From: Candidatus Aminicenantales bacterium
GTDB taxonomy: Bacteria > Acidobacteriota > Aminicenantia > Aminicenantales > UBA4085
Assembly: GCA_049515535.1 (NCBI GenBank)
Contig: JBEKTZ010000008.1
Span: 1 to 64,000, forward strand
Length of the DNA stretch: 64,000 nt
Direction of reading: 5' to 3'
The position numbers and the translations under genes are program-made. Below, one piece after another: positions 3,667 through 41,522 of the stretch; position 1 is the first letter of the stretch, and each line of letters starts with the position of its first letter. The notes beneath the pieces are model-generated. The model had not been told where the DNA came from. It saw nothing but the letters and a program-made list of their open reading frames with translations, and searched no databases.

Positions 3667-3999
3667 TCAGGATTTTTCCTTATATCTCGCTGGCTCGTCA
3701 AAGAAATCAACGACAAATACTTTCGAATGAAATACGGCCGAATGAGGCACGCCCCTCGGGATGAAATACGTGTCCCCCTTCCGATATATTCTCGTTACAC
3801 CTCCTATGGTTAGGCTCATCTCTCCGTCGAGGACCATTCCGAATTGGGCTCTATGGGCATGTTCCGTCACCTTTCCAATTGGCTCGATTTGCATAAAGAC
3901 GATCTGTTGATCTTTGCCTTGGAAAATCCATCCTTGAAGACCTTTGAATGCGATGTCTGCTTGTGGCAAACACGTTACCATCTCGGGGTATTCGTTCAT
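3667..3999 (-). CDS. cupin domain protein
   Basis: HAHxxQ...GDTYFIPRGVPHSA cupin motifs; SD GGAGG before ATG 3999. Confidence 0.85.
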   Translation of the reverse strand: MNEYPEMVTCLPQADIAFKGLQGWIFQGKDQQIVFMQIEPIGKVTEHAHRAQFGMVLDGEMSLTIGGVTRIYRKGDTYFIPRGVPHSAVFHSKVFVVDFFDEPARYKEKS

Positions 4000-5516: not shown

Positions 5517-6137
5517 TTATTTCCTCTCCTTTTTTGAACAGAACGAAATCAATAATCTCAAATTAATAGTTGTTATATTAGCATCACTCCGTTTATTGAA
5601 CCTTTAATGGTATTTCTGCTTAATAATAACATTTTTATTTTATTATGTGTCAAGCTCTTGTGCGTTTTCACCGATTCCTAAGATTGTAAGTCTTTTATCC
5701 CTTCTCTCTTTTCTGACCCGGCCGGGATGTCCTGATTTCACTTCCAATCATCAACAATCAGCCGCCGGTGCCGCACTTACCCCCCTCCTCCTCGCCCTAA
5801 GTGTCCTGAAATCAACAATCAGCCGCCGGCGCCGCTCTTTTTTCCCTCTCCGATATGCCTTTTATGTCTGCATAATAAGCAGGAGAACGACTTTTCCTTC
5901 AATCTCATCCCGCCGGCTTTAAGAACAATCCTGGCTTGTTATAAACTTCAGGATTAGAGAAATCTTGTAATCGTCCCATTTCAAGCGGTGGCGAATATAT
6001 ATGGATGCGAATACCTAAAGTTTTCTTGATGTCGGCGCGAATTCGATGTTATATTTGATTCTCGATTGTCCGCCGAGATTTTAAATTCAGAGGAAGGGGA
6101 CACAAGATATGACGAAATTTATTTTCTCCTTATCAAA

Positions 6138-16302: not shown

Positions 16303-16554
16303 ATGTCTAAACGCGGAAACGAGAAAAAAGAGAAATATCTAATGGATAAAAGAATTCTTTCAATTCTAAAAAGAGCTCCAAAAAGAGGGATTTGGATGAA
16401 AAATCTTGCCCTAAGATTAAAAATATCGAGATCACTATTAAATTACTATTTGTTCGGAATGAGAAATAATGGGAGTATAAAGGGAGGCAGAATCAGAAAT
16501 ATTATTGTAATCCGTAATGAGGGAAATAATCGATTCGTATATCTTAAAGATTAG
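16303..16554 (+). CDS. small wHTH protein
   Basis: DKRILSILK...LALRLKISRSLLNYYL. Confidence 0.6.
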   Translation: MSKRGNEKKEKYLMDKRILSILKRAPKRGIWMKNLALRLKISRSLLNYYLFGMRNNGSIKGGRIRNIIVIRNEGNNRFVYLKD

Positions 16555-16840
16555 GTGGGGGAACATATTTAGCTCTCCGACTGTCTTGTCTGTCTGATCA
16601 AGAAAATCGTTAACTTGCATGCCGCTTATTTTAATTTATGGCGGATAGAAAATTGAATATTCTTGAAAAGTTTCTATAAGATCACTTAGTTTATTGCAAA
16701 AATGAGAATTATTCCTGCCTTCCTTCGTCCTTCATTATGAGGCTAATATTCGCCGTCACGGCATCACTTCTCCTGGGTCCTTCGTTCCGGAGGGAGGTTG
16801 TGATACCCTTAGAAGTGGCATCGGAGGCAAATGCTCATTG

Positions 16841-17638
16841 CTATAGCCCTTTTCCGTGGCATTTTTTGTATTTCGTCCCACTTCCGCATGGACACGGTTC
16901 ATTTCTTCCTACTTTAGCAACGCTTTTTATTGAAGTTAGTTTTTTTATAATATCCGGAGGAGCCGTAGTAACAGAAACGCCTCCGAATATCAGCCCGGCC
17001 GTAGTATTTTGTTTTTTTGAATAAGTAGGGATTAAAGACTTTAATGTTTCATGGGCGATCTGACGTATTGCAGCGCGTTCGGGTCCCTGTAAAGGGCGAT
17101 TCCCATGCGCATTTTGCACTATCCATCCTAAGCCACCCTTTTTTGATATTATCGAATATGCCTCATCCAATTTTGGATCGACATGGGCACCGCCATCTTG
17201 ATTTGTAGTAAATAATATAAGTTGACCTCGAGAGAACTGGCGTCTTTCTGTGTCCACGAAAACAGGATTGTTCCACCATTGATCAAAATCGATTTCTTTT
17301 AATTTTTCTGGCGTGTCGTCTAGCATAGCAATATATCGGGGAGATGAAGATTCCATGGCAATACACACTAACCCGCCATATCCCAGCAAGTTGTTTGGAT
17401 CATATTTTACGGCAGAATCAATGAACATTTGATTCTTCATCCCCAACTGCCCGAGTAAAGATGTAGATTGTTTTGAATCATAAAGCAAAATGCGAAGGTC
17501 CACTGCCAGTCTCTTCGCCTCTCCCTCAAAACCGCTGTCAAAAGAAATTGCTGATTGTTTTAGAAAATGTAATTGTTCATTAAGGTGTCTAATAAGATCG
17601 TCTTTTGAAATAGGAATTTTTGGGCGTATTTTTAACAT
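16841..17638 (-). CDS. SEC-C motif protein with uncharacterised (possibly HEPN-like) N-terminal domain
   Basis: C-terminal [29 protein letters not shown] motif. Confidence 0.8.
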
Positions 17639-17888
17639 TTTACCCCATTCCCTGAGAATTTCTTGCCTCTCGGCCGTCTATATTGATGAGGCACATCCTT
17701 CGCCGTCACGGCGTCGTTTTTATGGGGGAGGCTAGCGATGACCCGGCCTTCCCCGCCTCATCCATATCGGCCAACTTCCTAAACTCTGGATCATCCCAAA
17801 GTGAAGTTAAGTCCTTCTCTGTTTTTATCAGTATTTTTATATTTTAATCCAATTCGATAGCTTTTCATTATTTTCTCAACGCAGGTGC

Positions 17889-19691
17889 TTACCTTCCTAT
17901 CTTAGACAGACAATAAGCGATTCTGAGCAAAGCATCCGAAAAATCCGGTTTCAATTCCATAGCTTTTTTATAAGCTCCGATAGCTTCTTCGAAGCGGCCG
18001 AGCTTTTCAAGCGTAGATGCTTTATTAATCCAACCTTCTGGAGCCATCGGCTTCAGTTTGATAGCTTTGTTAAAAGCGATGAGGGCTTCCTCAAAACGGC
18101 TGAATTCTTTAAGCACTATGCCCCTGCTATACCAAGCATTTGCGTAATCCGGATCTAACTCAATAATTTCATCGTAAGCGGCGAGGGCTTCCTTAAAGCG
18201 AAGAAGCTTTTCAAGTATAAGGCCCTTGTTATACCAAACCAATGTACTATCCGGCTTCAGCTCGATGGCTTTCTCGAAAGCGGCAACAGCTTCCTCGAGG
18301 CGATTAAGCTTTTCAAGCATAACGCCCTTACTAAACCAAGCCTCTTGAAAATTCGGATCTAACTCGATAGTTTTTTCGAAAGCGGCGAGTGCTTCCTCAT
18401 AACAATCCAACTTTTCGAGCATATAGCCCTTGTCAAACCAGGCCATTTTATCATCCGGCTTCAGCTCGATGGCTTTCTCGAAAGCGGCAACAGCTTCCTC
18501 AAGGCGATTAAGCTTTTCAAGCATAACGCCCTTGTTAAACCAAGCCACTTGAAAATCCGGCTTTAATTCGATAGTTTTTTCGAAAGCGGCGAGTGCTTCC
18601 TCATAGCAATCTAACTTTAAGAGCATATCGCTCTTTTTATACCAAGATACGTAATCATCCGGCTCAAGCTCGATAGCTTTTTCGTAAGCGGCAAGGGCGG
18701 GCCCAAAGCGAGCTAACTTTTCAAGTAATTGGCCTTTATTGAGCCATGCCATTCGATTTTCCGGCTTCAACTCGATGGTTTTTTCATAAGCGTTGAGGGC
18801 TTCTTCGAAACGGCTGAGCCTCTCAAGCGTATAGCCTTTGTTAATCCATGCGGCTGGATCGCCCAGCTTCAGCTCGATAGCTTTCTCAAAAGCAGCAAGG
18901 GCTTCATCGAAGAGGCTGAGATCTCTAAGTGTATAGCCCTCTAAATACCAAGCTTTTGGGTCATCCGGATTGAGCTCAATGGCTTTTTTAAAAGCGTTGA
19001 GCGCTTCCTCAAAACGGCTGAAATCTCTAAGTATCATGCCCCTGCTATACCAAGCATTTGCGTTATCCGGATCTAACTCAATAGTTTTATCGTAAGCGGC
19101 GAGGGATTCCTCGAAGCGTCCGAGGTGCCCAAGCACATAGGCTTTATTCATCCATACTACCGAATCATCCGGCTTGAGCTCGATGGCTTTGTCGTAGGCG
19201 CGAAGGGCTTCCTCCCATCGTTTAAGGAAGCCGAATGATACTCCAAGATGGTATTGTGCAATCGTCCGCGCCTCAATATCTCCAGTCCTGGCAGCAATCA
19301 GAGACATTTCCGAAAAATATGGAAGGGAATTTTCATGCCTTCCAGCCCACGTAAAAGAAACCCCGATTAGATTTAGAGCTGCGCATTTTTCGCTATCTAG
19401 AATCGAATATCGCTTAAGATAATCTGATAATACGGAAATGGCTGTTTCATAGTCGGAGTTCTTCATTGCTGCCAGAGCTTTATCGTAGACGGCTTGCTTG
19501 TCCTTCTTTTTTAGGAAGGAGACTCCGTCTTGATAAAGGTATGTATCAATCTTATCGCTCAATTCCTCGAAAAGGGCCTCGGTTCGCTTCTGGTAATTTT
19601 GGCTTCTTTTTTCTTGAACGACGAAAAGAACTACAGCGACAATGGCTGCAATTACCGCAAAAACCGCGGCGATTATCCAAGGAGAGATCAT
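17889..19691 (-). CDS. membrane-anchored TPR protein
   Basis: N-terminal TM, then many 34-aa W-NKG--L--L-R-EEA--A--KAIEL-P repeats. Confidence 0.95.
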   Translation of the reverse strand: MISPWIIAAVFAVIAAIVAVVLFVVQEKRSQNYQKRTEALFEELSDKIDTYLYQDGVSFLKKKDKQAVYDKALAAMKNSDYETAISVLSDYLKRYSILDSEKCAALNLIGVSFTWAGRHENSLPYFSEMSLIAARTGDIEARTIAQYHLGVSFGFLKRWEEALRAYDKAIELKPDDSVVWMNKAYVLGHLGRFEESLAAYDKTIELDPDNANAWYSRGMILRDFSRFEEALNAFKKAIELNPDDPKAWYLEGYTLRDLSLFDEALAAFEKAIELKLGDPAAWINKGYTLERLSRFEEALNAYEKTIELKPENRMAWLNKGQLLEKLARFGPALAAYEKAIELEPDDYVSWYKKSDMLLKLDCYEEALAAFEKTIELKPDFQVAWFNKGVMLEKLNRLEEAVAAFEKAIELKPDDKMAWFDKGYMLEKLDCYEEALAAFEKTIELDPNFQEAWFSKGVMLEKLNRLEEAVAAFEKAIELKPDSTLVWYNKGLILEKLLRFKEALAAYDEIIELDPDYANAWYSRGIVLKEFSRFEEALIAFNKAIKLKPMAPEGWINKASTLEKLGRFEEAIGAYKKAMELKPDFSDALLRIAYCLSKIGR

Positions 19692-19892
19692 TGCCTAGTT
19701 ATATGTCCTTAATTATTCCTAAAAAATCACCTGGGATACTTTTAACGAACCCTTTGTAGAATCCCCCGCGGCTTGCGTAGAAATATTTAGTCGGTCGCTC
19801 AGGTCTTTTATTGAAACGGTCGAACTGCTCTGATAAATATCTATCCTCCTCACCGTCTATATCAATGAGGCGCTACCATCGCCTTCACGGCG

Positions 19893-20309
19893 TCACTTCT
19901 CCCGGGGGCCAGCCGGGCGATCGGCGGCCCCGGGCGCCTCATCTTTTCTCTTCGGAAATGCTTCTCTTAACGCCTCCTTACATAATTCTACTGCCGGTAG
20001 ATGCCGCAATTCGGGATGATTTTCAAGATATTTCCCAAATACATCCGCTATTTGTCCGACCGTTACGCCCGTTTCACCACTAGGTAGATCGAAAAACAAA
20101 CTATTAAAACAATCAGCGACGGCTGCAGTGAATCCAAGGAAAAACGCAGCATTAGAAAAATCCAGATTCGTCTTTACTTCTTTTTTTCGTGCCAAATAAT
20201 TTTCATATATTTTATTCCCGGTCATAAACTGGCCATAAACTTCAGAAAACAAAACAATCAAAGCAAAGCAGACAGAAATCAGCATAGACGTTATGCTTTT
20301 AATCTTCAT
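19893..20309 (-). CDS. Rap1a/Tai-family immunity-like exported protein
   Basis: Signal peptide; FMTGN...VTVGQIADVFGKYLENHPELRHLPA...ALREAFP resembles Rap1a; SD GAGGAGG. Confidence 0.7.
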   Translation of the reverse strand: MKIKSITSMLISVCFALIVLFSEVYGQFMTGNKIYENYLARKKEVKTNLDFSNAAFFLGFTAAVADCFNSLFFDLPSGETGVTVGQIADVFGKYLENHPELRHLPAVELCKEALREAFPKRKDEAPGAADRPAGPREK

Positions 20310-20374
20310 AGACCCCTCCTCAATAAATGCGATCGGACGCAAATTCTTTATTAACCGGATCCCTGGGCCCTGCC

Positions 20375-20572
20375 TCAAAACAATTCGAACACTCTTTTGC
20401 AATCTGAACAATGCCAGACCTCAATGTTCGCTTCAGGATATTTATTCGAATTGCCGCTAGGCCCGGCAGCATAAGACGTGAACCCCTTATAAGTATTTGT
20501 GGATTGGCAATAGGGACACTTCCCATCGAAAGTTTTTTTGGAAAGCCGCTCGATCGTTTCGTTTTCTTCCAT
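20375..20572 (-). CDS. small zinc-ribbon protein
   Basis: CPYC...CSDC; SD GAGGAGGGG. Confidence 0.65.
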   Translation of the reverse strand: MEENETIERLSKKTFDGKCPYCQSTNTYKGFTSYAAGPSGNSNKYPEANIEVWHCSDCKRVFELF

Positions 20573-20574
20573 AT

Positions 20575-20742
20575 TTATTCCCCCTCCTCAATCGTTATCT
20601 TCTCCACCCTGCAGTACTCCGGCCGCTGATCGAAATCCTCGTTCGTCCCGAGGTTGTAGAATCGGCAGAAGTAAAGAAACCGGCGCTTCTCCCCGAACGG
20701 GCAGGTCGGGCAATTCTCAGGGACAATGATTCGATCAACCAT
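20575..20742 (-). CDS. 55-aa Cys-containing protein (below ORF-track cutoff)
   Basis: MVDRIIVPENCPTCPF...FCRFY...RPEYCRVEKITIEEGE*; stop abuts the next ATG. Confidence 0.5.
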   Translation of the reverse strand: MVDRIIVPENCPTCPFGEKRRFLYFCRFYNLGTNEDFDQRPEYCRVEKITIEEGE

Positions 20743-20784
20743 AGGTAATTTCCCATGAGACCGTCGGCCTGTCTCTCCCGCCTC

Positions 20785-21174
20785 TTATCTTTGAAAAAAG
20801 ACTTGGCCTCCACCTCTTTTTGGCGTTCCTCCATTTTTTCTACAAATCGGACATGTGAAGATCCCTGGGGTCGCTGATTCATGAAGATTAATTAATTTAT
20901 TTTCAGAGTCCCAACATCCGGAACAATACGGACCGGTTTTAATCCCATCTTTCCCATTTTTATATATAGCATTATTTTCAAAATACACGGAATCTTTCGT
21001 CTTAAGCGTTTCATTCAGACGAGCGACCTCTTCCCTCAACTCCTGGTTCTCTCTTTGAGTATCGATTATTTTTTCTTGGATCTCAATGAGTTTGTTATAA
21101 AGATCAATATTTCCGGCTTTCTGTAGGGCCTTCCCTATCAATTGAACATCCGAAATAATTCCCATCCTATTCAC
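20785..21174 (-). CDS. coiled-coil + zinc-ribbon protein (prophage-like)
   Basis: Heptad N-half, then GPYCSGCWD...CPIC. Confidence 0.7.
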   Translation of the reverse strand: MNRMGIISDVQLIGKALQKAGNIDLYNKLIEIQEKIIDTQRENQELREEVARLNETLKTKDSVYFENNAIYKNGKDGIKTGPYCSGCWDSENKLINLHESATPGIFTCPICRKNGGTPKRGGGQVFFQR

Positions 21175-21186
21175 TCCTTTTTTACA

Positions 21187-22917
21187 TCAAGTTCCCTTTA
21201 AAACCATCTGTTCTTTTTTAGGTTTCTTAAACTTCTCTGCTTTCTTAAACGTTGCCCCCAATTGCCGGACCGGGGGCATGTCAATGGCCTTGACAGCCAG
21301 GATCTCGGCAACCGTGAGTAACTGGAGCTTCGGGTGCTTCGTCCCCCAGGCCCTATGTTCATAAAATCCAGCGGTCACCGCTTCTGTCTGCATCGGCTTA
21401 GTCGGCTCATCCATAGAAATAAGGGCCCCGATTGCGGCCTTCTCACGCTCGACAACGCCTCGGAGATCTCGGATATCAGTGGCTTTTAGATTGCCGCCCT
21501 TTACGGAGATGATGACGGTCTCAAATTCTCCGGGTTTTTCTCCTTGGAAGATGATCTTCCCGTCAATCCCCTTGTCAGCCCCTTTCTTCCGCTCGACAGG
21601 ACGAGCCCCGACAAGGCCAAGTGCCCAGTATTGGAATTGATAGGGATCTGATTCAGCGAGCGCGGCCGCGTCCGGGACAGAAACGGGCTCTCCAATGACT
21701 TGGTATTTCGCTTGATCCCCGAAAGCATCCTTAAGCCTAGTTTTCATTAGGGTGATCGCCAGGTGCGTGATATCAATTCCGATCCATTTTCTTTGGAGCT
21801 TTTGAGAAGCAGCGATAGTCGTTCCGCATCCACAGAACGGATCAAGCACTATATCATCCTTATTTGAGCTCGCTTTTATTATTCGGCCCAGCAAGCCCTC
21901 AGGCTTCTGCGTCTGGTAGCCCAATCTTTCCCGATCTCGCGTGGAGAGCCAGCGAGCATCCTCGTCAATCCCTTCTTCAGTACCAAAAACAGTTCCATTC
22001 GTATAGGGCTGGAACGCCCAAATATCCGATAATAACTGCCCATCATCTTTTTTTAAACGCCGCTCATACATTGGCCATGCTTGTCCAGGATCTATCTTTA
22101 TGAACCCAAGTTCAAAAAGTCTATCCAACTTTTGATGCTGAGATAGACCTGACATGTCTTCATCAATATCATCTAATAAGGCTCCGGGGAGTGCCCAGTG
22201 CCTGTTTTTCGCGGAGGGATCGATTCCACGCCACGTTTTCCCGGATTCCCCTCCGCGCAATCCCGCCCCGGTAAGGACGTTCCCATAATATGCAGTTTTG
22301 TATCCAGAATCGTCCTTAACAAAATTCTCTTCAACGTGGCCTTTCATATAAGGGCGTTTAGGATAATTCCACGTAAAGTTCCCCGTTCTCGTATAGAAAA
22401 GAATTACGTCGTGGATGGGCCCATATCTAAGCAATTTATTATGTGATCCTGTCCGTCGCCATATGATTTCATTCCTAAAATGTTCGGGTCCGAAAACCGC
22501 ATCCATCAGCATCTTGAGGTAATGGCTGGCCACCGGATCACAATGAAAATAAATACTTGCCGTTGGCTTCATCACCCGCCGAAGCTCAACGAGCCTCGGT
22601 GTCATCATGACCAGGTAGGCTAGCATATCGCATGGGCCTAGAAATTTTCTGAAAGCTTGAACGCAGTCCGCTACCTTCCCGCCTTTTGTTATGAGTTCGG
22701 CGTATGTTTCTTCGCCCTCCTGGTTCCAAGTCCAGGTATCCTCGAACGCCCGGATCTGACTGGCTGCTCGGGCGCCATTCTGCTCCTTGTAGAGGATATT
22801 GTAGCTCTGGTCGCTTTTAAACGGCGGATCGAGATAGACCAGGTCTATGCTATCGTCCTTTATGTATCGCTGGAGAATGTCTAGGTTGTCGCCGTAGTAG
22901 AGGGTATTCTCGTCCAT
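21187..22917 (-). CDS. N6/N4 DNA methyltransferase fused to an Mrr-like endonuclease domain
   Basis: YLDPPF, DPFCGCGTT, TQKPEGLL; C-terminal GADKGIDG...SVKGG. Confidence 0.9.
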   Translation of the reverse strand: MDENTLYYGDNLDILQRYIKDDSIDLVYLDPPFKSDQSYNILYKEQNGARAASQIRAFEDTWTWNQEGEETYAELITKGGKVADCVQAFRKFLGPCDMLAYLVMMTPRLVELRRVMKPTASIYFHCDPVASHYLKMLMDAVFGPEHFRNEIIWRRTGSHNKLLRYGPIHDVILFYTRTGNFTWNYPKRPYMKGHVEENFVKDDSGYKTAYYGNVLTGAGLRGGESGKTWRGIDPSAKNRHWALPGALLDDIDEDMSGLSQHQKLDRLFELGFIKIDPGQAWPMYERRLKKDDGQLLSDIWAFQPYTNGTVFGTEEGIDEDARWLSTRDRERLGYQTQKPEGLLGRIIKASSNKDDIVLDPFCGCGTTIAASQKLQRKWIGIDITHLAITLMKTRLKDAFGDQAKYQVIGEPVSVPDAAALAESDPYQFQYWALGLVGARPVERKKGADKGIDGKIIFQGEKPGEFETVIISVKGGNLKATDIRDLRGVVEREKAAIGALISMDEPTKPMQTEAVTAGFYEHRAWGTKHPKLQLLTVAEILAVKAIDMPPVRQLGATFKKAEKFKKPKKEQMVLKGT

Positions 22918-23443
22918 CGAAGGCCTCCCGTTTAAACCCTAGGAGGATTCTAATCCAAAGGCGTGGGCCAGGGCAACCCTCATCTTGGAGGCCTTCTCCT
23001 TTCCTCTGCTTGTCGATCTGGAACCGCAAGGATGGTCAGCGGCGGTTTTAGCTGTAGCGGAAAGGAGGGCGGCTATTCAGCCGACCCGGGCTCACCATTG
23101 CAGCAGGGGAAGAAATCTTTATGGAGATGCCCCCGCATGGCTTCCAGGCGGGCGCATGGGCAGGGCTGGGGCGCATCGGCTCAAAGCTATACCTACGCGC
23201 TATGCTATAGAGCATAGCATAGCTATATATATATTATTAATAAATATAAATATGAGCATAGCAAAGCAGGATCCACGCCTAGCTGAGCTGCGGCTTGGCT
23301 AGAGGCCATTGCAGAGCAGGGGCGAGCGCGCGCAGGCCAATAACCATTGCGTTTGGGGAACTTGGATATATGACTTTGCGCTCGCCAGACGCGTGTGAAC
23401 CTAAGGAAAGCATGTATCCTCGGCCGGGCCTTCCAACGCCAGT

Positions 23444-23993
23444 GTATGACCTTCGAAATCTTTCTAATTGACTCGGAAAAGATTTTGAGGACGCAAATAA
23501 AGACAACATCAAATCGCTCATAGGGAGAATCGAGCAAAAAACGTTTACGCGAAGAACTGGATCGGAAGTCCCCTATCAAGAGAGCACGAAACGAGATTTC
23601 CGAATAACGATTAGAAAATTCTATAAATGGCTCCGAGGAACGGAAGAACTCCCGGAAGAGGTGAAATGGATAAAATCCAATCGCAAAAAATGCCAAAGAA
23701 TCAAGCTTCCAGAAGAGATGTTTACTGAAGAAGACACAAAGAACATGATTAACGCTGCGGAGAATCCCCGCGACAAAGCCTTCATTGCCGTCCTATACGA
23801 AAGCGGTTGCAGAATCGGGGAAATGCCATTTCTTAGATTAAAGCATATAAAATTCGACCAGTATGGAGCTCAGCTATTAGGGGATGGCAAGCCCGGGTAT
23901 AGAAGAATAAGAATAATTGCGTCCGCTCCATATCTCACAGAATGGATCAATAAGCTAGAAAGGCGGAAAATCCTTCATTTCTCGGGGGATTAG
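23444..23993 (+). pseudogene. tyrosine recombinase/integrase fragment (archaeal-like style)
   Basis: In frame: YDLRNLSN*LGKDFEDANK...RKFYKWL...RDKAFIAVLYESGCRIGE...DGKPGYRRIRI. TGA at 23469; the HxxR/Tyr half is missing. Confidence 0.85.
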
Positions 23994-24352
23994 GTGGGGT
24001 GAGCGAGTATCCAAATCTATAACTCCATTCATAGATTTTTTGAAATATAATTCGATTTCCCCATATATAGAATCTTTACGCCAGTGTATCGGAAGGAATG
24101 TAGAGTAATCCCATAATCAGTTGGCAATCGGGGACGCATAAACGAAAAAATTGTTTGAGAATCGATTTGTGTTACTAAGATTTATTGATATAGTGAGCTC
24201 TGAGAAAATCTTAGAAATCATTCAATGTAAAGATGAAATATGATTCATTAAATCGATTCGTAATTCGATAATATATGCTTTGCTAAGAAGCGGCAAGGTC
24301 TTAAAAATCTCACTTCAGAAGAGGCACATTGAGTGGGGGCGGATCAAAATAA

Positions 24353-25288
24353 CTAAGCAACAACGATCTTGATACTATTCAGATTTAAGTAAGAATCCTT
24401 AATCTCTTTCAAATACCATTCAGCATTCTCCTTTGCTCTCTCGGGCATATAGTGGTCAGTAAGCGTTCTAATTGCCGCTAGGCCAAAAGTGATTGTCATG
24501 CGAGCTATAGATGGAACCTCAGAGGGGAGCCTAAGCTGTGAAAATGATACCACTCCCGGCCCTTCAATCGAAAACTTATCCTCCATAATATCTGTTCCAT
24601 GAACTAATTCAGACCAAGAACGATATAATATCTCGTACAGGGCTGGAAACCCCAGGTGTTCTGCTAATTGGCATACATCGTTTGAGCCGCCGTGCATACT
24701 ATACCAATGTCTGGGCGGCTTGCCTTTAGTGGACTTTATTCTTTCATATTCATCGCTGGATTCTTTATAGGACGGAAGTTCAAAAAGCTTCTTTAGCTTT
24801 TCAATCCGCTCTTCAATATCCGGTATAACTCCCGATGGCATATATTTAAGAATTTTATCTTTCGCTTTCTTCTTTTCATACTGGATGTATAGATCATCCT
24901 TTGGATCAAATCGCCTATAGGAAAGTATCTTTTTATGTCTTTTCCATACCAAAAAATCCATGCCTCTTGATTTGAGGTCTTTTTCAAAAAGGTAATTAAT
25001 ATTAAGTAAAGATTCAAAAAGGGATCTCAGAAGAATGTTGCAAGGCTCAATACAAGAATTCCTAATTAACACCGAGATGGAATCTATTAATTCAAAAATA
25101 TTTCTATACATGAGGAATGCGGGCACATTTTCATCGCCTTCTTTAATACTATCCATGCCCCACCTGAAAACATGAGAACCATAGTTTATGACTTCTTCTA
25201 TCAACGAAGAAATATGAACTAAGATACTCCTAACCTCGGGATTATCTATTTCCCTGGGAATGAATTCATTTATAGGTTTTGTAGGCAT
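24353..25288 (-). CDS. DUF5677-like (HEPN-like) protein
   Basis: ILLRSLFE and LYRSWSELVHG patterns. Confidence 0.6.
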   Translation of the reverse strand: MPTKPINEFIPREIDNPEVRSILVHISSLIEEVINYGSHVFRWGMDSIKEGDENVPAFLMYRNIFELIDSISVLIRNSCIEPCNILLRSLFESLLNINYLFEKDLKSRGMDFLVWKRHKKILSYRRFDPKDDLYIQYEKKKAKDKILKYMPSGVIPDIEERIEKLKKLFELPSYKESSDEYERIKSTKGKPPRHWYSMHGGSNDVCQLAEHLGFPALYEILYRSWSELVHGTDIMEDKFSIEGPGVVSFSQLRLPSEVPSIARMTITFGLAAIRTLTDHYMPERAKENAEWYLKEIKDSYLNLNSIKIVVA

Positions 25289-25542
25289 TGTGTTAGCTTT
25301 ATCAGAGAAGCAAATAACGATTAACGTAATTTAGATGAGGCTCATCGAACTGCAGATAATAGCAGATGATTTTATTGACCAATGTTTCCCCTTTCAGAAT
25401 AATGGGCTTTGAGCGGAGTATTGTCAAGCTGCGTGGCCAGAGCTATCCTGAACATCTTCTTCCCGCCCTGTTCGGCTACATCGTAGACTATCCCGGCTTT
25501 ATCAAGGTACGTCTTGGTCCGGCCGAATGTCAATTCATATAA

Positions 25543-25571
25543 TTGACAATTAGAAAGTAATTAATCATAAT
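25543..25571 (+). promoter_or_regulatory. sigma70-type promoter
   Basis: TTGACA-N17-CATAAT upstream of ATG 25594, at the head of the plus-strand gene string. Confidence 0.7.
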
Positions 25572-25593
25572 AAACCTCTACTAAAAGAGGGGT

Positions 25594-26058
25594 ATGCCGA
25601 TTAAAAGCAAATGTTCTATTTATCTAAAATATTTAGCATATTCATTATCTTTCCTGATCTTCATTTTTTATTGTCTTTCATGTAAAAGTGGAGCTCCGAC
25701 AACTCCTACTACGTCAACTAGCTCATCGACCTCAACTTCGTCTACGACTAGTTCCACAGCATCAACATCAACAAGTACTTCAACAATAATTTCTACAACA
25801 TCAACATCTAGCTCAACAACTTCTTCTTCGACTTCAACAAGTTCTTCAACATCTTCTTCGACAACTACAACGACCGTTCTGGTTACTACCGTTTACATTA
25901 CAAATTCCGGAACTAAATATCATTTAGACGGCTGCCAATACCTTGCAAATAGCAAAATTGCTATATCTTTGGTTGATGCTTGCAAACAAGGATATGAACC
26001 TTGTTCTGTTTGCAAACCGCCTCCCTGTCCAGAATCTTTTCACTTTGAGAATAAATAA
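25594..26058 (+). CDS. lipoprotein with Ser/Thr linker and small Cys/His metal-binding domain
   Basis: LSC lipobox; long S/T run; VYITNSGTKYHLDGCQYL...GYEPCSVCKP. Confidence 0.8.
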   Translation: MPIKSKCSIYLKYLAYSLSFLIFIFYCLSCKSGAPTTPTTSTSSSTSTSSTTSSTASTSTSTSTIISTTSTSSSTTSSSTSTSSSTSSSTTTTTVLVTTVYITNSGTKYHLDGCQYLANSKIAISLVDACKQGYEPCSVCKPPPCPESFHFENK

Positions 26059-26163
26059 TTTCAATTTTGCTATACGAAATTGTCCACATTGTGGAAAAAA
26101 GCTGGAGTAACTGTCTAGCAAATTTGCTTTGATACTTTCGTTCAGCAAGTTGAGACGGATATT

Positions 26164-27660
26164 ATGAAAAAACATATTCTAAGGCTTAGGGCTCATTTCA
26201 TCTCAATAATCATATTTTTATTATTTAATCTTCCGATTTATTCCGAGGGCATAAAAATTGCCACGTGGAATTTGCTCAATTTTCCCGGCAGCACAGGATC
26301 ATCCCGAGAAATTGACTTTCGTAAGGTCGTTGATCAATTAGGGCTGGACATTCTCATAGTACAGGAAATGACCAGCTATGAAGGCGTTAATGAATTTAAA
26401 AACAATGTGATGAATTATTCATCTCCTGGGAAATATGAAGCGGCAAGTTTTTATGACGGCCCTGATACAGACAATGAAGCCTTTTTCAATAAAGCAACCA
26501 TTTCCCTTATCAGCCAATCAAAGATCCCGACCTCTCTTCGTGATATCTCGGAATATTTATTCGAGATAAAAGCCGGGTCTGGAACAGGATTACGTTTTAG
26601 AATTTATTCTGCGCACTTAAAAGCCGGGACAGCTGCCGATGATAAGAATGAACGAGCTCAAGAAGCAACTGTCTTGAGAAATTATCTGAATGATCTCCCG
26701 CCGAATAGCTATTTTCTCGTTTGCGGCGATTTTAATATGGAATCTAGCAATGAATCTGCTTTTGGAATTCTTGCGGGTAACCAATCAGATAACGACGGCC
26801 GCGTGAAAGATCCAATAAATAAGCTCGGGGATTGGTATAACAATTCAGCATTTGCAAAGCTTGACACCCAGTCAACCAGGGCAATCCAGTTCGGAGGAGG
26901 CGCTTCTGGAGGATTAGATGATCGATTCGACTTGGTTTTAATCTCTTATGCGCTCGACGGCGCTAATGATCTCATCTATAAACAGGGAAGCTATTTTGCC
27001 TTTGGGAACGACGGAAATCATCTTAATAAAGCGGTAAATGATGGAACAAATGAGGCCGTTAATTCCGAAATAGCAAACGCATTATATGAAGCATCCGATC
27101 ACCTTCCGGTCGTCATCGAAATAGATGCAACAAATACCATCGAAACCCATGCCTTAACGATAGTATCAGGCACAGGTGGCACTACGATACCCTCGCCTGG
27201 AACCTTCCATTACGGAGTTGGAACTCAGGTTGCAGTGACCGCGATTCCGGACGCTTTCTTTAAATTTGCGAATTGGACAGGAAATGTAGCTAGTGGACAT
27301 GAATTTGATAATCCGCTTTCAATCACGATGGATTCCGATAAATTATTGACAGCGAATTTTCTAAGGATCATCTATCCTCCGCTCCAACTTGCCGGGCAGA
27401 AAGTTCTTAACCGCTCTTTATCTCAAGCTGAATATATTAATGTGATCACATGGAATCCGAATCCTAATAATGCGAATATCGTTGGATATAGAATTCGTCA
27501 AATAGAGGTAAATTCCGATTTTTTACTAGCCGAAGTGAACAGTTCAACCTCTAAACTCCAGCATAGGAAAGTTGAAAAGAACAAAACTTACACGTATTCC
27601 GTCGTGGCCGTGAACAACGAGAACAGAGAAGGCAATCCTGCATATGTGACGATTCGATGA
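26164..27660 (+). CDS. secreted EEP (endonuclease/exonuclease/phosphatase) protein + InlB-like repeat + FN3
   Basis: IATWNL, VQE, HLKA, GDFN, RFD and SDHLPV motifs; C-terminal beta domains. Confidence 0.9.
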   Translation: MKKHILRLRAHFISIIIFLLFNLPIYSEGIKIATWNLLNFPGSTGSSREIDFRKVVDQLGLDILIVQEMTSYEGVNEFKNNVMNYSSPGKYEAASFYDGPDTDNEAFFNKATISLISQSKIPTSLRDISEYLFEIKAGSGTGLRFRIYSAHLKAGTAADDKNERAQEATVLRNYLNDLPPNSYFLVCGDFNMESSNESAFGILAGNQSDNDGRVKDPINKLGDWYNNSAFAKLDTQSTRAIQFGGGASGGLDDRFDLVLISYALDGANDLIYKQGSYFAFGNDGNHLNKAVNDGTNEAVNSEIANALYEASDHLPVVIEIDATNTIETHALTIVSGTGGTTIPSPGTFHYGVGTQVAVTAIPDAFFKFANWTGNVASGHEFDNPLSITMDSDKLLTANFLRIIYPPLQLAGQKVLNRSLSQAEYINVITWNPNPNNANIVGYRIRQIEVNSDFLLAEVNSSTSKLQHRKVEKNKTYTYSVVAVNNENREGNPAYVTIR

Positions 27661-27806
27661 AAAAATAGCAGCAAAAGCTGGATCTCCTAGGCTTTGCGAT
27701 TAAAGAGATACCCTAACGGCGAAGGGAGGCCTCATGATGAAAGACGAAGGAAGGCGGGAATAATTCTCATGGGACGGAACCGGGTCCGAAAGAAAGGGGA
27801 AATAAC

Positions 27807-28442
27807 ATGACTATTGAAGAACGCTTGGAGAACATGGAAAGAGAACTGGGGCGTCAGAAGCGGCGTAACCGCTGGCTGTTGGGAGCGATTCTGCTTGTAG
27901 TCGTGGGCTTGATCGCCCCCGTATTGTTAAAGACAGCGCCTTTACAGGCACGGGCACAAGTGCCAGGAGCGGTCAAGGAGGTTCGGGCCAATAGAATCGT
28001 ACTGGAGGACGAAAACGGAAGGATCCGCGTTAAGTTGATCGTGGACAAATATGGCCCAGGCCTTAGGCTATATGATGAAAATAGCAAACTCTGCGGCGAG
28101 TTGAGCGTGGATAAAGATGGCCCGTTTTTGTCGCTTTTGGACAAGAATGGCGAAATCCGCGCCCACTTGGCGGCGTCCGAAGATGGCCCGTTTTTGTCGC
28201 TTATGGACAAAACTGGTAAAGAGCGCGCTGTGCTGGCCGAAACCAATTATAGCGCGCTCCTATCGCTATATGACGAGAACGGCAAGATCCGCGCCGGGTT
28301 GGAGGCGTCCAAAAATGGCCCGAGCCTGAAGCTGAATGATGAAAACGGTAAGATCAGCGCCGTGCTGAGCGTGTTCAAAAATGGCCCGAGCCTGGGGCTG
28401 TATGACAAAAATGGCAATGTTATCTGGAGCGCGATAAAATAG
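27807..28442 (+). CDS. membrane-anchored beta-repeat protein
   Basis: TM, then ~22-aa GP-L-L-D-NG--R repeats. Confidence 0.85.
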   Translation: MTIEERLENMERELGRQKRRNRWLLGAILLVVVGLIAPVLLKTAPLQARAQVPGAVKEVRANRIVLEDENGRIRVKLIVDKYGPGLRLYDENSKLCGELSVDKDGPFLSLLDKNGEIRAHLAASEDGPFLSLMDKTGKERAVLAETNYSALLSLYDENGKIRAGLEASKNGPSLKLNDENGKISAVLSVFKNGPSLGLYDKNGNVIWSAIK

Positions 28443-28613
28443 CTAAAGACACGGGAATGCGGAAATAATTCTCATGACTAGGATCAGATACCAGGAAGCC
28501 GCTGGGCTGGAAGTGAAGCGGGGACGTCCGCCGCTGGGGCCGGGGTATAAAATACCGAATAGATTAACAGGGGAACATTCACTGTTTAGGTTAATAAATA
28601 GGGAGGGAGGCCA

Positions 28614-29147
28614 TTGAATAAAAAAAGAGTTTTAGTCTTAGTTGTCGGAATTTTGGTTTTTGGGCTTCTTGGTTATGAATTATTTCAAATTAGAAGCATT
28701 AAATCTCAGATCGAAGACATGGAATGGAGGTTTGCGCTCCAAGAAAAATCTCAAGAGGATACTATAACAACGGATGTTGGCACAATTCAGTTTCTGAAGA
28801 GGGGTTATTCGATCCATATCGAAAGTGCAAGGTTCATGGCAGAGGGCCTTTACCTTAAAGGTTATGTTGGGAATCCCTTGAATATTTGGGTAAGCAATCT
28901 AACCCTAAAATTCGTCGTTACGAAACCGCTGTATGAATATAAAGACCAGTTTTATAAAACAAACAGCCCGTATTTTTTCTGGTTTGGAGCTGAGAATATA
29001 GGAGATGCTCAGACTTCTCCTATTGTATCGTTATTACCTAGTAAAAGAGCTCCATTTGAAGTCACGATTCCCAATGTAAAACAGACAAAGGAGGGATTAA
29101 GAATAGCTGTTTCATTCACCGGTGAACGTTATAGCTATTTAGAATAA
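28614..29147 (+). CDS. membrane-anchored hypothetical protein
   Basis: TTG start with SD GGAGGGAGG; N-terminal TM. Confidence 0.75.
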   Translation: MNKKRVLVLVVGILVFGLLGYELFQIRSIKSQIEDMEWRFALQEKSQEDTITTDVGTIQFLKRGYSIHIESARFMAEGLYLKGYVGNPLNIWVSNLTLKFVVTKPLYEYKDQFYKTNSPYFFWFGAENIGDAQTSPIVSLLPSKRAPFEVTIPNVKQTKEGLRIAVSFTGERYSYLE

Positions 29148-29305
29148 TTTTTTCTCTGTAAAAAAAGGTTGATCATTTCTAAGATGAGGCAGGGAAGGCC
29201 GGGTCATCGCCAGCCTTCCCGATGAGAAGTGACGCCGTGATGGCGAAGGATGCGCCTCATAGGAAGAGACGCTTGAGCAATAGATTTTTCTCACATGAGG
29301 AGAAG

Positions 29306-29665
29306 ATGGACAAAAGTCAAATGAAGTGTGGATGTTGTGATAATCAGGAAAAGGACATTATAGAAATATTCAGGGAATCTGGTCCTTCTAATGAGCACTT
29401 CATTTACTATTTAATTTGCGGTCACGAATATGTCAGCGATGATGTCTCTGAATTTCTTGGAATCCAAGAATTTATTAGGACGGAATATACGGAATATAAA
29501 GATAACAAGGGGAAGCTTCTGAGCGTCTTTAAAACAAAGATAAGTGGCGAAACCAAAAGACCAGCCAGAGAGACAATTAAGATTGATCATGAGAATAGAT
29601 CACATCATCATATTGTCGAAGAGCAAAATGAAAAAGGAGAATGGGAAATAGTATATAACCAATAA
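29306..29665 (+). CDS. hypothetical protein with Cys cluster
   Basis: MDKSQMKCGCC...ICGH; SD GAGGAG. The ORF-track 5' extension lies within the repeat element. Confidence 0.55.
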   Translation: MDKSQMKCGCCDNQEKDIIEIFRESGPSNEHFIYYLICGHEYVSDDVSEFLGIQEFIRTEYTEYKDNKGKLLSVFKTKISGETKRPARETIKIDHENRSHHHIVEEQNEKGEWEIVYNQ

Positions 29666-29764
29666 ATGATAACAAAGGCAGGGACCCCAGGGGACGCTGG
29701 TTAGCGTTCGGTTGCCTCATAGGAGAGACGGCCGGGCAAGATAATATTCTCAAAGGAGGGTGTG

Positions 29765-29950
29765 ATGAGACCATAATTTGAGGTTTTCAAAGACAGTGCA
29801 TGGCAATTCCGCTTTCGGCTCAGGGCTCCAAATGGAGAAATCATCGCGACAAGTGAAGGGTACACGACCAAGCAAGCTTGTCTAATTGGAATAGACGGCC
29901 AGCCTTTAAATCTCGCCTTTATTAAGGGCGGGGAAATGATAAATTCTTAA
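29765..29950 (+). pseudogene. YegP/DUF1508-family pseudogene
   Basis: MRP*FEVFKDSAWQFRFRLRAPNGEIIATSEGYTTKQAC; TAA at codon 4; SD AGGAGG. Confidence 0.8.
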
Positions 29951-29991
29951 TTGTTATTTTTATGTTATAATATTTAAAGAGGGAGATTGTT

Positions 29992-30423
29992 ATGAAGCAA
30001 GAAGATCTGATTTTGGCGGCGTTCGGCGCTTCTAAGATTCACTCATATGAACCTGTTCAAATACAAAAGCTCATTTTTATTTTCCAGCAAAGAGCATCCC
30101 AATTTTTTAAAGTTAGACCGTTTGATTTTCGTGCTTATGATTATGGCCCTTTTTCCGTAGATATATATTCTCGTCTTGATGAATTAGCGGCAGAAGGATA
30201 TATAATTATCGAGGGTGAACCGTATAGCCGTTATCGGCTTTATTGTCTTAGCGAATCAGGAAAAGAGAAGGCAAAAAGCTTTCTTGATCTAATTCCTGAT
30301 CCTTACAAGAAATACCTGCATCAGCTCGCCGATTGGATCCAGTCCCAAACTTTTTCTCAACTTGTAGGGGCAGTATATAAGGAATTTCCGGCGATGCGGG
30401 CTAATAGTGTTTTCCACGATTAA
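29992..30423 (+). CDS. SocA/Panacea-like (DUF4065-like) protein
   Basis: IQKLIF...FRAYDYGPFS-DIY--LDEL motif. Confidence 0.7.
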   Translation: MKQEDLILAAFGASKIHSYEPVQIQKLIFIFQQRASQFFKVRPFDFRAYDYGPFSVDIYSRLDELAAEGYIIIEGEPYSRYRLYCLSESGKEKAKSFLDLIPDPYKKYLHQLADWIQSQTFSQLVGAVYKEFPAMRANSVFHD

Positions 30424-30426
30424 ACG

Positions 30427-31179
30427 ATGACTGCTGTTGTTGGGGTTCTCTGTGAAGATGGAGTAGTAGTCGGGACAGATAGCTCCGAGACTTTTTCGGC
30501 GGGAACGATACCCACGATCGAGCAAAAAACAAAAAAAATTGATATCGTTGAAAATAGTGTTATTATCGCAGGAACCGGTCAGATTGGTTTAGGGCAGAGA
30601 TTTGTTGGATTGGTCGAACAAGCTTATCATGATAAACTATTCACAAAAAATTATTTAGAAGTCGGGCGCTATCTAAGCAAAGCAGCTATTGAAAACTTCG
30701 CCTCAACCTATTCTGATAAAATGCAATATGGAGCGCTACTAGCTTACAGTTCAGGAGGTAGTTTTTATCTATGTGAGTTCGCCGAAAGGGATTTCCAGCC
30801 CGAATGGAAAAACGCGAATATATGGTATGTCTCTTTAGGCTGTGGGCAGCGAATAACGGATCCGTTTCTGGGATTCATACGAAAGATTTTTTGGAAAGAC
30901 AAAATGCCCAAGGTTGCGAGCGCCACTTTCATCGTCACTTGGACAATCCAAAATGTTATCGAATTAAATGCAGGGGGAATAAACGAACCAATACAATTGG
31001 CCGTATTAAGGCGGACAGTTAGAGATCATCATTTTCAGGCAACAATAGTCACGGATGAAGAATTGAGAGAACACATGGGAAATGTCATAGAAGTAGAAAA
31101 ATATTTGGGGAAATTTAAGGCGGAGTTTTGCGATGAGACTGCGCCTGCCATTCCCAAGTTGAATACTAAAGAAACATAA
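30427..31179 (+). CDS. proteasome-beta-like Ntn hydrolase
   Basis: N-terminal M-T-AVVGVLCEDGVVVGTDS, KKI, SLGCG and GGIN motifs. Confidence 0.75.
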   Translation: MTAVVGVLCEDGVVVGTDSSETFSAGTIPTIEQKTKKIDIVENSVIIAGTGQIGLGQRFVGLVEQAYHDKLFTKNYLEVGRYLSKAAIENFASTYSDKMQYGALLAYSSGGSFYLCEFAERDFQPEWKNANIWYVSLGCGQRITDPFLGFIRKIFWKDKMPKVASATFIVTWTIQNVIELNAGGINEPIQLAVLRRTVRDHHFQATIVTDEELREHMGNVIEVEKYLGKFKAEFCDETAPAIPKLNTKET

Positions 31180-31450
31180 TAATTAGGCTATTTTTTTGCC
31201 AGAACAATGAGCCCCCGCCGCCGCGAAGGTCCGTTTTTGGATAGCCGCCGTGGGACATTCTACTTCGATATGTTCGTCGGCTTCCCTCCAATTGGCTAAA
31301 TCAGACAAAAAACAAATCGTCGGGGACCGCGTATCAAAGTGAAGACGCACCTCTCCCCGTGTGACACCGGTGTCACAAAAAGTGCTAAATCTCGCTTAAA
31401 TTGGGATAATGGAGCTTAAAACGAAAACACTATTTTCAGGGGAAAATCGA

Positions 31451-31491
31451 GAGCCAGCGAGAGGAATCGAACCTCCGGCAGACTAATTACG
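31451..31491 (-). other. 3' half of tRNA-Thr(CGT): att-site relic
   Basis: Reverse complement CGTAATTAGTCTGCCGGAGGTTCGATTCCTCTCGCTGGCTC covers anticodon, T-arm and acceptor 3' strand; no 5' half. Confidence 0.7.
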
Positions 31492-31791
31492 GCCAGGCCG
31501 AGACTTCCCAAAAAGCTCTCCCTCATTCATTAAGGTAGGGGCGGAATATTTTTGATCATCTCATTTTCATCGGAAGGGAAAGTCTATCATCTTTTGACTA
31601 GGGCGAAAGGGTTTTTTGCCCCGGCATGCTCTTCCGCAATCGACGTTCGCGATGTCAGAAAACTCACATTATGTCTGGACCATTTTTTAGGGATGAGGTC
31701 CTGGGGTTAAAAGATCGGCGCGGTCAAAAAGCATATTCTGATACAATCTAAGTGAAATGCTATTAAAATATTAATCGAAAGGGGATATTCA

Positions 31792-40110: not shown

Positions 40111-40250
40111 TGGACCTTATCCCTGAAAAATGGTCCACCCATAATGTGAGTTTTCTGGCAAAATCTCTAGTCAGGAGGTTTTGCGGATGAAGAAGTCGAA
40201 GCTCACGGAAGAGCAGATCGCCTTTGCACTCCGCCAAGCCGGGGCGGTCG
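40111..40250 (+). mobile_element. IS3-family left-end remnant
   Basis: TGGACC...TGGTCCA end, SD AGGAGG, orfA start MKKSKLTEEQIAFALRQAG at 40187, then breaks off. Confidence 0.8.
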
Positions 40251-41381: not shown

Positions 41382-41448
41382 ATGAAGTCAGATAAAAGAA
41401 AAAATCACAACTTATTGATTCTAGAACAATATAGGGGGAAAAAAGGAG

Positions 41449-41522
41449 CGTGCCTGACAGGATTCGAACCTGCGACCTACGGCTCCGGAGGCCGTCGCTC
41501 TATCCAGCTGAGCTACAGGCAC
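41449..41522 (-). tRNA. tRNA-Arg(CCG), CCA not encoded
   Basis: GTGCCTG/CAGGCAC acceptor stem, D-arm AGCTCAGCTGGATAGAGC, ACGGC-CTCCGGA-GCCGT anticodon arm, GGTTCGAATCC. Confidence 0.97.

Follow-up and report, generated by a model that had tools for sequence, protein, structure and literature searches.

To our knowledge, integrons are the only well-understood system in which unrelated genes are strung together by means of a folded DNA site. The two ends of that site, attC, carry the cores R'' (RYYYAAC) and R' (GTTRRRY). The REP/BIME, ERIC and Correia families are also familiar as structured repeats between genes; they have inverted termini and often lie downstream of genes, and some members have promoter activity or are processed as RNA. 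A third point of reference is provided by the PeSLs of T4-type phages, which are described as cassettes of promoter and stem-loop that flank nonessential genes and mediate modular shuffling (PMC2839356). Here we describe an element of ~115 bases from a stretch of 64,000 nucleotides (hereafter the window), the first 64 kb of contig C8 (JBEKTZ010000008.1) in the genome (3.45 Mb, 56.8% GC) of a Candidatus Aminicenantales bacterium. Three full and four partial copies are found in the window, along two strings of unrelated genes.

The element represents a real, conserved, structured and order-restricted family, not previously described, which bounds gene modules and marks where modules are exchanged. 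Tentatively, and with somewhat less than even confidence, we read it as a cassette-boundary element that would be recognised in the form of folded DNA, its copies exchanging at the core GCCTCAT and its tail resembling a promoter. An earlier sequence-only reading of the window had proposed a gene-capture cassette system with a non-attC site, diverging from a dead integrase, or else a mobile structured RNA element. Part of that proposal stands, as the structured family, the position at gene ends and the breakpoints in the flanks agree with it; the links to integron integrases and to the dead integrase are not supported.

Distribution, anatomy and fold of the element

One genome per species was scanned by pattern, and the first true copies came from two Candidatus Aminicenantes metagenome-assembled genomes. 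A covariance model was then built from six copies, with a structure consisting of the outer stem and hairpin 2 only. This model gave 11 matches in the present genome at E ≤ 1 and, at E ≤ 0.01, found the family in 27 genomes out of the 101 examined from this order. The carriers include 20 of the 71 high-quality genomes and 17 of 41 genera; matches often lie several within a few kb, and the copy number is at most 11 per genome. In 150 genomes from the rest of the phylum no match was obtained at E ≤ 0.001, a result that doubles as a specificity control for the model. A stricter word pattern added three IMG/VR contigs and more than 125 metagenome contigs; in 77 metagenome and viral loci taken from these, 60 copies were confirmed by the model. 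No Rfam family matches the element: only a tRNA reached gathering scores in the window, and the copies were unmatched at E ≤ 5 in 16500-31500. Among the papers searched, none joins Aminicenantes, integron and attC.

The order of the parts is constant, first in 59 genome copies and then in ~114 in all. In the 5' half, (A/T)TGAGGC is followed by hairpin 1, a purine-rich junction ending in GAC, hairpin 2 and a junction of 7-9 nucleotides (nt); in the 3' half, GCCTCAT is followed by 6 nt, AGACG, 16-17 nt and TTCTCA. The spacing is rigid, with 6 nt in 51/59 copies and 16-17 nt in 49/51. The seven copies in the window, c1 to c7, are listed below together with a stub of the small helix-turn-helix (HTH) gene discussed further on; bit scores refer to the covariance model and z values to the minimum-energy fold.

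16698-16815, minus strand: c1, partial copy with decayed 5' half (32.7 bits, E 2.8e-5); core GCCTCAT (ATGAGGC on the plus strand) 16737-16743, TTCTCA 16703-16708; end of the minus string, 3' of the SEC-C gene
17653-17766, minus strand: c2, full copy, three-way junction and tail (95.1 bits; z -2.6); outer-stem 5' strand 17755-17761, core 17686-17692, TTCTCA 17653-17658; between the TPR and SEC-C genes
19826-19947, minus strand: c3, full copy with another hairpin 1 (100.5 bits; z -2.8); outer-stem 5' strand 19936-19942, core 19865-19871, tail end TTATCA 19831-19836
27661-27774, plus strand: c4, partial copy without the outer-stem 5' strand and hairpin 1 (26.6 bits); core 27729-27735, type-A tail, TTCTCA 27764-27769, then a 13-codon stub of the HTH gene (MGR...)
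28445-28475, plus strand: c5, tail only (AGACA...TTCTCA), TTCTCA 28469-28474; directly after the stop of the gene 27807-28442
28474-28617, plus strand: HTH-gene stub after c5, 47 N-terminal codons (79% identity over residues 1-24)
29179-29293, plus strand: c6, full copy, three-way junction fold (99.9 bits; z -1.4); outer-stem 5' strand 29184-29190, core 29254-29260, TTCTCA 29288-29293, then GAGGAG and ATG at 29306
29660-29752, plus strand: c7, variant without hairpin 1, read from sequence; hairpin 2 ACGCT/AGCGT, core 29714-29720, TTCTCA 29747-29752, then AGGAGG and the start of a YegP-like frame

The sequence-only reading had noted that the element flips its orientation with transcription, and all seven copies do follow the strand of their genes. 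Its individual comparisons were also reproduced: the copies at 17686-17762 and 29183-29260 are near-alike (c2 versus c6, 87%), the copy at 19865-19943 has a different hairpin 1 that pairs in the fold of c3, ACGCT/AGCGT takes the place of hairpin 2 in the copy at ~29675 (c7), and the full copies c2, c3 and c6 fold as three-way junctions. The word pair GCCTCAT-N3-12-AGACG occurs five times in the window against 0.04 expected. The tail of c1 is 82% complementary to c4, and c7 was missed by the covariance model at E ≤ 1 in the search of the whole genome.

The outer stem is closed in the minimum-energy fold of 46/56 copies, and in 42/56 at least two inner hairpins form as well. The covariation proposed for the hairpins was confirmed for both of them, whereas the outer stem is instead invariant in sequence, its five inner pairs being unchanged in 97-99 of 103 copies against a background of variable inner helices. 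In hairpin 2, pairing extends to 82.7% of cells versus 72.8% after shuffling (none of 500 shuffles reached 82.7%), with 46 double-change cells where 17 were expected, a count attained by no shuffle; slid controls were 22-54% paired. Its compensating variants comprise CGCC/GGCG, CGCT/AGCG, CCGC/GCGG, CGGC/GCCG and CGTG/CACG. Hairpin 1 has 107 distinct sequences in 107 copies and a mean energy of -15.0 kcal/mol, compared to -10.1 kcal/mol when shuffled; 66 distinct helix sequences were counted in the 82 copies whose helix runs unbroken over 5 bp or more. The consensus fold of 33 cores aligned with MAFFT recovered the outer stem alone, because the length of hairpin 1 varies.

No wobble bias, and hence no sense-strand signature of an RNA, was observed by column, neither in hairpin 2 (22 G-U versus 25 A-C) nor in the inner pairs of the outer stem (4 versus 9). 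In whole-core folds the G-U counts are equal on both strands, and the sense strand is the stabler one in just 32/56 copies. A 1x1 A-C count taken from the folds was discarded as unreliable, because the folding program shifts pairings. Stop codons close all three frames in 39/110 junctions versus 17.8 after shuffling, which is not decisive. A hammerhead-like core was considered by eye and dropped; the junction words differ among copies. A canonical attC site was rejected as well, in line with the absence of GTTRRRY cores noted in the sequence-only reading: both attC cores occur together in 0/110 family copies, RYYYAAC in none and GTTRRRY in four.

Gene ends, reassorting flanks and the tail

The location at the 3' ends of genes in sense orientation, first remarked in the window, extends to the family as a whole, as 49 of 59 copies come after a co-oriented open reading frame (ORF) 60 or more codons long. 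The stop codon lies between -4 and +3 nt from the stem in 20 of these 49; in nine, the TGA within ATGAGGC is itself the stop of the upstream ORF. The upstream genes are diverse and encode TPR, ankyrin, methyltransferase (MTase)-Mrr, EEP, SEC-C, DUF4411 and pentapeptide proteins, a TnsA-like nuclease and sensor kinases. Upstream ORFs at times read into the junction; the Rap1a-like frame (19893-20411), for example, enters c3 by ~50 nt (19893-19947), and its stop is the TGA before hairpin 2.

Comparison of copies in different places that share a related flank yielded 23 pairs, related upstream only in ten, downstream only in 12 and on both sides in one. Gene-content breakpoints of relatives, the comparison by which gene capture was to be judged, thus fall at the element in 22/23 pairs (one flank only), with a sharp break after GCCTCAT. 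The clearest case is that of loci L029 and L170, which are identical at 239 of 242 positions through GCCTCATT; beyond it, only the fixed words of the family are shared. In locus L028 and the viral contig L097 the MTase-Mrr gene is 80% identical over 771 nt and the junction 94%, after which the two diverge. Over the 30 nt to the left of the core, 18 pairs agree to 90% or more; one of these pairs reaches 90% in the 27 nt before TTCTCA as well, and nine stay below 60% there. The reverse case, with the right half alike and the left not, was found in three pairs. The type-A tail is 100% identical in three copies with cores 52-67% alike; that of c4 is 100% identical to those of L052:6296 and L117 although the cores are only 52-55% alike. 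The halves to the left and right of GCCTCAT accordingly assort independently, with one sharp recent breakpoint, and the flanking genes are shuffled, as in the PeSL type, by what reads as recombination between cassettes.

The commonest tail, GGACGAAGGAAGGCGGGAATAATTCTC, leads directly into the ATG of a protein of 112-121 amino acids (aa) whose helix-turn-helix matches HTH_23, HTH_28 and Sigma70_r4_2. This gene is present in 11/101 relatives; it is intact in a few, and stubs of 13-58 codons follow many copies, including those at 27769 and 28474 in the window. The c5 region is 79-87% identical to the tail and HTH regions of five loci. Ten largely full-length HTH genes were examined. All have an AT-rich stretch before the start and lack a Shine-Dalgarno (SD) sequence, about 8/10 show an (A/T)TTCTCA end and several keep GACG 17 nt farther upstream, while the junction itself lies upstream of three. 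The HTH genes thus keep a tail-like upstream stretch, and the tail originated as the native upstream region of the small HTH gene. Neither this origin nor the rigid spacing of the tail figured in the sequence-only reading. As a separate observation, an ankyrin-repeat protein in locus L054 (G025:C69, 3158-3889, minus strand) begins with ~33 residues that correspond to the N-terminus of the HTH protein, a fusion at the element tail. In locus L059 an integrase gene begins at the ATG of the tail.

The HTH stubs and the L059 gene are also what would be expected if the element were attachment-site debris, i.e. old island ends left by serial island integration beside the small HTH gene, and the islands do contain integrases, a tRNA gene and a tRNA fragment. 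Debris would not, however, keep its hairpins paired by compensating changes in more than 100 copies. Moreover, the copies come after single genes rather than whole islands, the junction is absent from 7/10 intact HTH genes, and the integrases near copies belong to different families. We regard this explanation as very improbable.

Just before TCTCA the tail has a -10-like RAWWWT box, the last base of which is the first T of TTCTCA. Among 105 tails, 67% have A at the second and 99% have T at the sixth position of the box; 55 of the 105 were found by a pattern fixing GCCTCAT, RGACG and TTCTCA, so that the tail logo is affected by ascertainment. In view of this box, the tail probably also supplies a promoter or leader. 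An SD-like sequence follows TTCTCA within 16 nt in 51/105 copies. In a sigma-70 scan the tails of c3 and c4, two of the seven in the window, reach 9 of 12 matches. The positions following GCCTCA are T-poor and contain no T-run in the 105 tails. The tail is intact in 7/9 copies without a co-oriented downstream gene.

This last finding would be accounted for if the conserved words belonged to an antisense small-RNA gene. Read on the opposite strand, TGAGAA-16/17 nt-CGTCT would form a promoter resembling those of extracytoplasmic function (ECF) sigma factors, and the RNA would start at ATGAGGC, begin with the three-way junction and run toward the stop codon of the cargo gene. ECF promoters have the form AAC-16/17-CGT, and the invariant blocks, strictly spaced at 16-17 nt from each other and 6 nt from the stem, fit a -35/-10/start geometry better in this direction. 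The fold is equally stable in antisense and sense, and the inner outer-stem pairs, in the sense reading, show more A-C (9) than G-U (4). Conversely, there is no clear terminator, with a mean of 3.4 U in the eight bases beyond the stem, and a motif scan of the genome, too loose to be informative, gave 309 matches (64 in the backwards control) and revealed no obvious sigma gene. The HTH start fused to TTCTC and the SD sequence after the tail are also left unexplained. On balance an antisense RNA appears unlikely.

Weighing a proposed folded site for cassette exchange

On the reading that we favour, the element would delimit mobile gene modules (cassettes) within genomic islands of one order. The left part, i.e. 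the three-way junction from ATGAGGC through GCCTCAT, would travel with the upstream gene, whose stop codon it touches or contains, and the right part (6 nt, AGACG, 16-17 nt, TTCTCA) would move with the downstream neighbour, whatever that is, copies exchanging at the invariant core GCCTCAT. Exchange at the core would be site-specific, the fold being read as DNA, like attC, by a host- or island-encoded recombinase other than IntI, and the tail would drive expression of the next gene. Recognition as folded DNA is favoured because the stem words are invariant, no strand bias is seen and the spacing is rigid, and furthermore because the tail is kept without a downstream gene and the break at the 7-nt core is sharp. 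The fuller proposal is possible but doubtful: integron-independent cassette arrays, built on a folded three-way-junction DNA site with GCCTCAT as 7-nt crossover core, a promoter-bearing tail and a putative order-confined recombinase, that stock islands with defence and accessory genes.

A series of observations weighs against recognition as folded DNA. The hairpin 1 of c6 belongs to class I, but its junction, hairpin 2 and tail are of a type usual in a different class; it is a mosaic with joints inside the fold, so not every exchange takes place at GCCTCAT. The left 30 nt are under structural constraint, and high identity on the left with low identity on the right may therefore partly reflect this constraint; unconstrained flank is included only in L029/L170 and, more weakly, in L028/L097. 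The foot of a hairpin is, in addition, a place where replication slippage or illegitimate recombination would naturally end. The -10-like box and the SD-like sequence fit a plain role in transcription and translation, as does the ATG directly after TTCTC in the HTH gene and one integrase gene, and the ascertainment of the tails given above counts on the same side.

The search for a recombinase points in the same direction. No recombinase is consistently adjacent to the element: related tyrosine integrases were found in 3/20 fetched regions and serine recombinases in three. The integrases near copies come from different families, and tyrosine or serine recombinases occur in some of the islands, as in any island. 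TIGR02249, the integron integrase profile, scores above its cut-off in 6/101 relatives, and just two of those six carry the element. A link to integron integrases is thus not supported, and an integron integrase was rejected as partner for lack of co-occurrence. Of IntI, this genome has only fragments, relics on other contigs (C4, 3352-3769; C14, 26310-26522), at 101-111 bits and below the cut-off; one of the two has an internal stop. The integrase relic reported between the two gene strings is present in the window:

23661-23993, plus strand: truncated tyrosine-recombinase gene, a 110-aa Phage_integrase fragment (Pfam E 2.1e-6) with the N-terminal part of the catalytic domain only

It had been seen as the dead integrase of the system; neither the other fetched loci nor the rest of the genome contain a homologue, and it was rejected as partner. 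A Y1 transposase is present in 86/101 genomes and so does not discriminate between carriers of the element and others. Finally, no circular or excised form was observed in the public assembled contigs compared with the window. In contigs of the likely source run there was no alternative joint skipping from copy to copy, and the sole joint touching a copy, from 27796 to 29252 on opposite strands, stems from a contig ~85% alike. Joints in a second metagenome represent relatives with other copies after the same genes, not circles.

Many of these observations can be reconciled with a portable regulatory module of the PeSL kind, in which the junction would act where the upstream transcript ends, through stability, processing, insulation or a coupling to the ribosome terminating there, and the tail would be the promoter or leader of the next gene. 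Shuffling would then be passive, arising from the short shared sequence and the hairpin, with no dedicated recombinase; indeed none is linked to the element. The element exactly occupies the space from a stop codon to the following SD sequence or start. The -10-like box and the 9-of-12 scores of c3 and c4 also fit, and the AT-rich, SD-less region upstream of the HTH genes is what a leaderless or short-leader mRNA would have. Restriction to one order would agree with a dependence on host transcription machinery. The PeSLs themselves are a promoter with a stem-loop, involved in modular shuffling of nonessential genes (PMC2839356).

Other features do not sit well with such a module. No U-run follows the stem, which is therefore not a canonical intrinsic terminator. 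The best-conserved words, AGACG and TTCTCA, lie off the places of the sigma-70 hexamers, the presumed -35 hexamer being the least conserved, and a promoter scan across the window was at chance level (32 versus 28.6 expected). A promoter or leader would not explain why the tail is kept in seven of the nine copies that lack a co-oriented downstream gene, and an invariant outer-stem sequence without sense-strand wobble bias is unusual for an RNA structure. Furthermore, 7 nt of shared sequence is too short for ordinary homologous recombination. We consider the module a serious possibility, nearly as likely as the folded-DNA site, and the two readings are not mutually exclusive.

A further possibility is that ATGAGGC/GCCTCAT is the terminal inverted repeat of a REP-like repeat or a miniature inverted-repeat transposable element (MITE) mobilised by a transposase in trans. 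The inverted termini, the internal hairpin, the patchy occurrence among genera and the near-identical copies across genera would all suit a MITE, and an IS200-type gene lies ~600 nt from one copy (near L051). That gene is, however, one of 14 in its genome, and the complete genome G027 has the element without any Y1 transposase match. The features typical of REPs and MITEs, namely many dispersed copies, target duplication and a cognate Y1 transposase, were not found: there are at most 11 copies per genome, oriented after the upstream gene in 49/59 cases and with a conserved tail outside the inverted repeat, and the flanks reassort in a cassette-like manner rather than by simple presence or absence. 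A MITE or REP-like origin therefore seems quite improbable.

Cargo strings, island setting and comparison with known systems

Both gene strings described in the sequence-only reading, on the minus strand at 16.8-22.9 kb and on the plus strand at 25.6-31.2 kb, are present, and Pfam agrees with the SEC-C, TPR, Rap1a, zinc-ribbon, MTase-Mrr fusion and EEP nuclease assignments. The TTGACA-N17-CATAAT promoter at the head of the plus string was likewise located, as a consensus match only. The features are:

16841-22917, minus strand: cargo string; SEC-C, TPR, Rap1a-like, zinc ribbon, two small ORFs, MTase-Mrr (Pfam)
16841-17638, minus strand: SEC-C gene (Pfam)
17889-19691, minus strand: TPR gene (Pfam)
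19893-20411, minus strand: Rap1a-like gene (Pfam)
20375-20572, minus strand: zinc ribbon (Pfam)
21187-22917, minus strand: N6_N4 MTase and Mrr fusion (Pfam)
25543-25571, plus strand: sigma-70-like promoter, TTGACA-17-CATAAT (consensus match, 11/12)
25594-31179, plus strand: cargo string; 154-aa ORF, EEP nuclease with fn3, 211-aa repeat protein, 177-aa ORF, then ~120-aa zinc-ribbon-like ORF, broken YegP-like frame, 143-aa ORF, proteasome-like 250-aa ORF
26164-27660, plus strand: EEP nuclease (Pfam)
41448-41522, minus strand: tRNA-Arg gene, at the edge of the low-GC stretch

Most 1-kb bins from 1 to ~41.5 kb have 30-50% GC, and this low-GC stretch stops at tRNA-Arg; around all ten element copies of the genome the GC content is 41-53%, versus 56.8% genome-wide. 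The MTase-Mrr (59% identity) and TPR genes recur in the relative G013 in a different arrangement, with a copy of the element after each, and where the EEP gene and the zinc-ribbon-like ORF have homologues in relatives, these likewise have a copy downstream. The YegP identity of 29764-29950 (plus strand) was read by eye; the frame opens with ATG AGA CCA and an in-frame TAA after codon 3, and is either broken or has a later start. The gene at 27807-28442 (plus strand) encodes a 211-aa protein of 66-nt internal repeats, and relatives from another metagenome contain many length variants inside it (joints 27838-28411).

Additional repeats and island features were noted in the window. At 350-5850, on the minus strand, at least nine copies of a second, unrelated repeat family lie between small minus-strand ORFs, some of them in tandem; the units are 76-85 nt long and of the form GCGGCGCCGGCGGCTGATTATCGATTTCTGGATATAATTTCAGGACA...GGGCAAGTCGTCGAGG, and four of them fold no better than shuffles (z +0.8 to +1.4). 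Just past the plus string, a conserved block at 31318-31430 contains the perfect palindrome TGTGACACCGGTGTCACA. In L044 the block (93% alike) comes right behind an element tail, and it also occurs in L045, L050 and contigs C1 and C13 of this genome; it may be an operator or island-end sequence. Next to it, at 31431-31520 (minus strand), lies a fragment resembling a tRNA 3' half (T-arm and acceptor end), which differs from tRNA-Arg 41448-41522. The fragment is probably a leftover attachment site, so that the low-GC region would be a mosaic of several islands. The inverted pair 31653-31701 / 40112-40160 (90% alike, and 95% alike in L056) is a short multi-copy repeat; contig depth in this bin rises to 106 (X1) and 388 (X2), and loose ends are numerous at 31656-31702.

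If the element is indeed a second folded cassette site, cassette capture would have evolved more than once, here with another fold and core, with an expression signal belonging to the site itself and without IntI, and the trade in defence and accessory genes within a poorly known uncultured group could be followed by it. Even on the plainer view of a regulatory module, it would be a bacterial counterpart of the phage PeSL cassettes. In either case it is a ready marker for island cargo in Aminicenantes genomes, and the family (27/101 genomes, more than 125 metagenome contigs) is abundant enough for direct tests.

With REP/BIME, ERIC and Correia repeats the element shares the character of a structured intergenic repeat with inverted termini. 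It differs from them in being low-copy (at most 11 per genome) and confined to low-GC islands, in its orientation and position fixed at stop codons, in the tail outside the inverted repeat and in lacking a discriminating link to a Y1 transposase.

The resemblance to PeSLs is that of a small repeated module combining structure with promoter-like sequence, which flanks nonessential unrelated genes in hyperplastic regions and whose copies, by exchange, shuffle genes. The order of parts is, however, reversed: structure precedes the promoter-like tail in the element, whereas in PeSLs the promoter precedes the stem-loop. Structurally the element is a three-way junction that lacks a U-run, and the hosts are bacterial islands of one order (plus three IMG/VR contigs), not T4-type phages. 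For PeSLs, promoter and terminator activity was measured; the corresponding properties of the element are predicted from its bases.

The differences from integrons are equally tangible. The cores ATGAGGC...GCCTCAT have the opposite polarity to RYYYAAC...GTTRRRY, a three-way junction with an invariant outer stem takes the place of the single imperfect hairpin of attC, and a conserved, rigidly spaced 35-nt tail with a -10-like box is present in addition. The element has no adjacent intI or attI and does not co-occur with integron integrases, the two strings in the window diverge where an integron is one array, and recombination at the element is putative. Still, as in attC, the site is predicted to fold, with conserved outer inverted repeats around a variable inner hairpin, and is located directly after, or overlapping, the stop codon of a co-oriented gene. 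As in integrons, arrays of unrelated accessory genes and empty tandem sites are found, and what lies left of a short core goes with the upstream gene while what lies right of it goes with the next.

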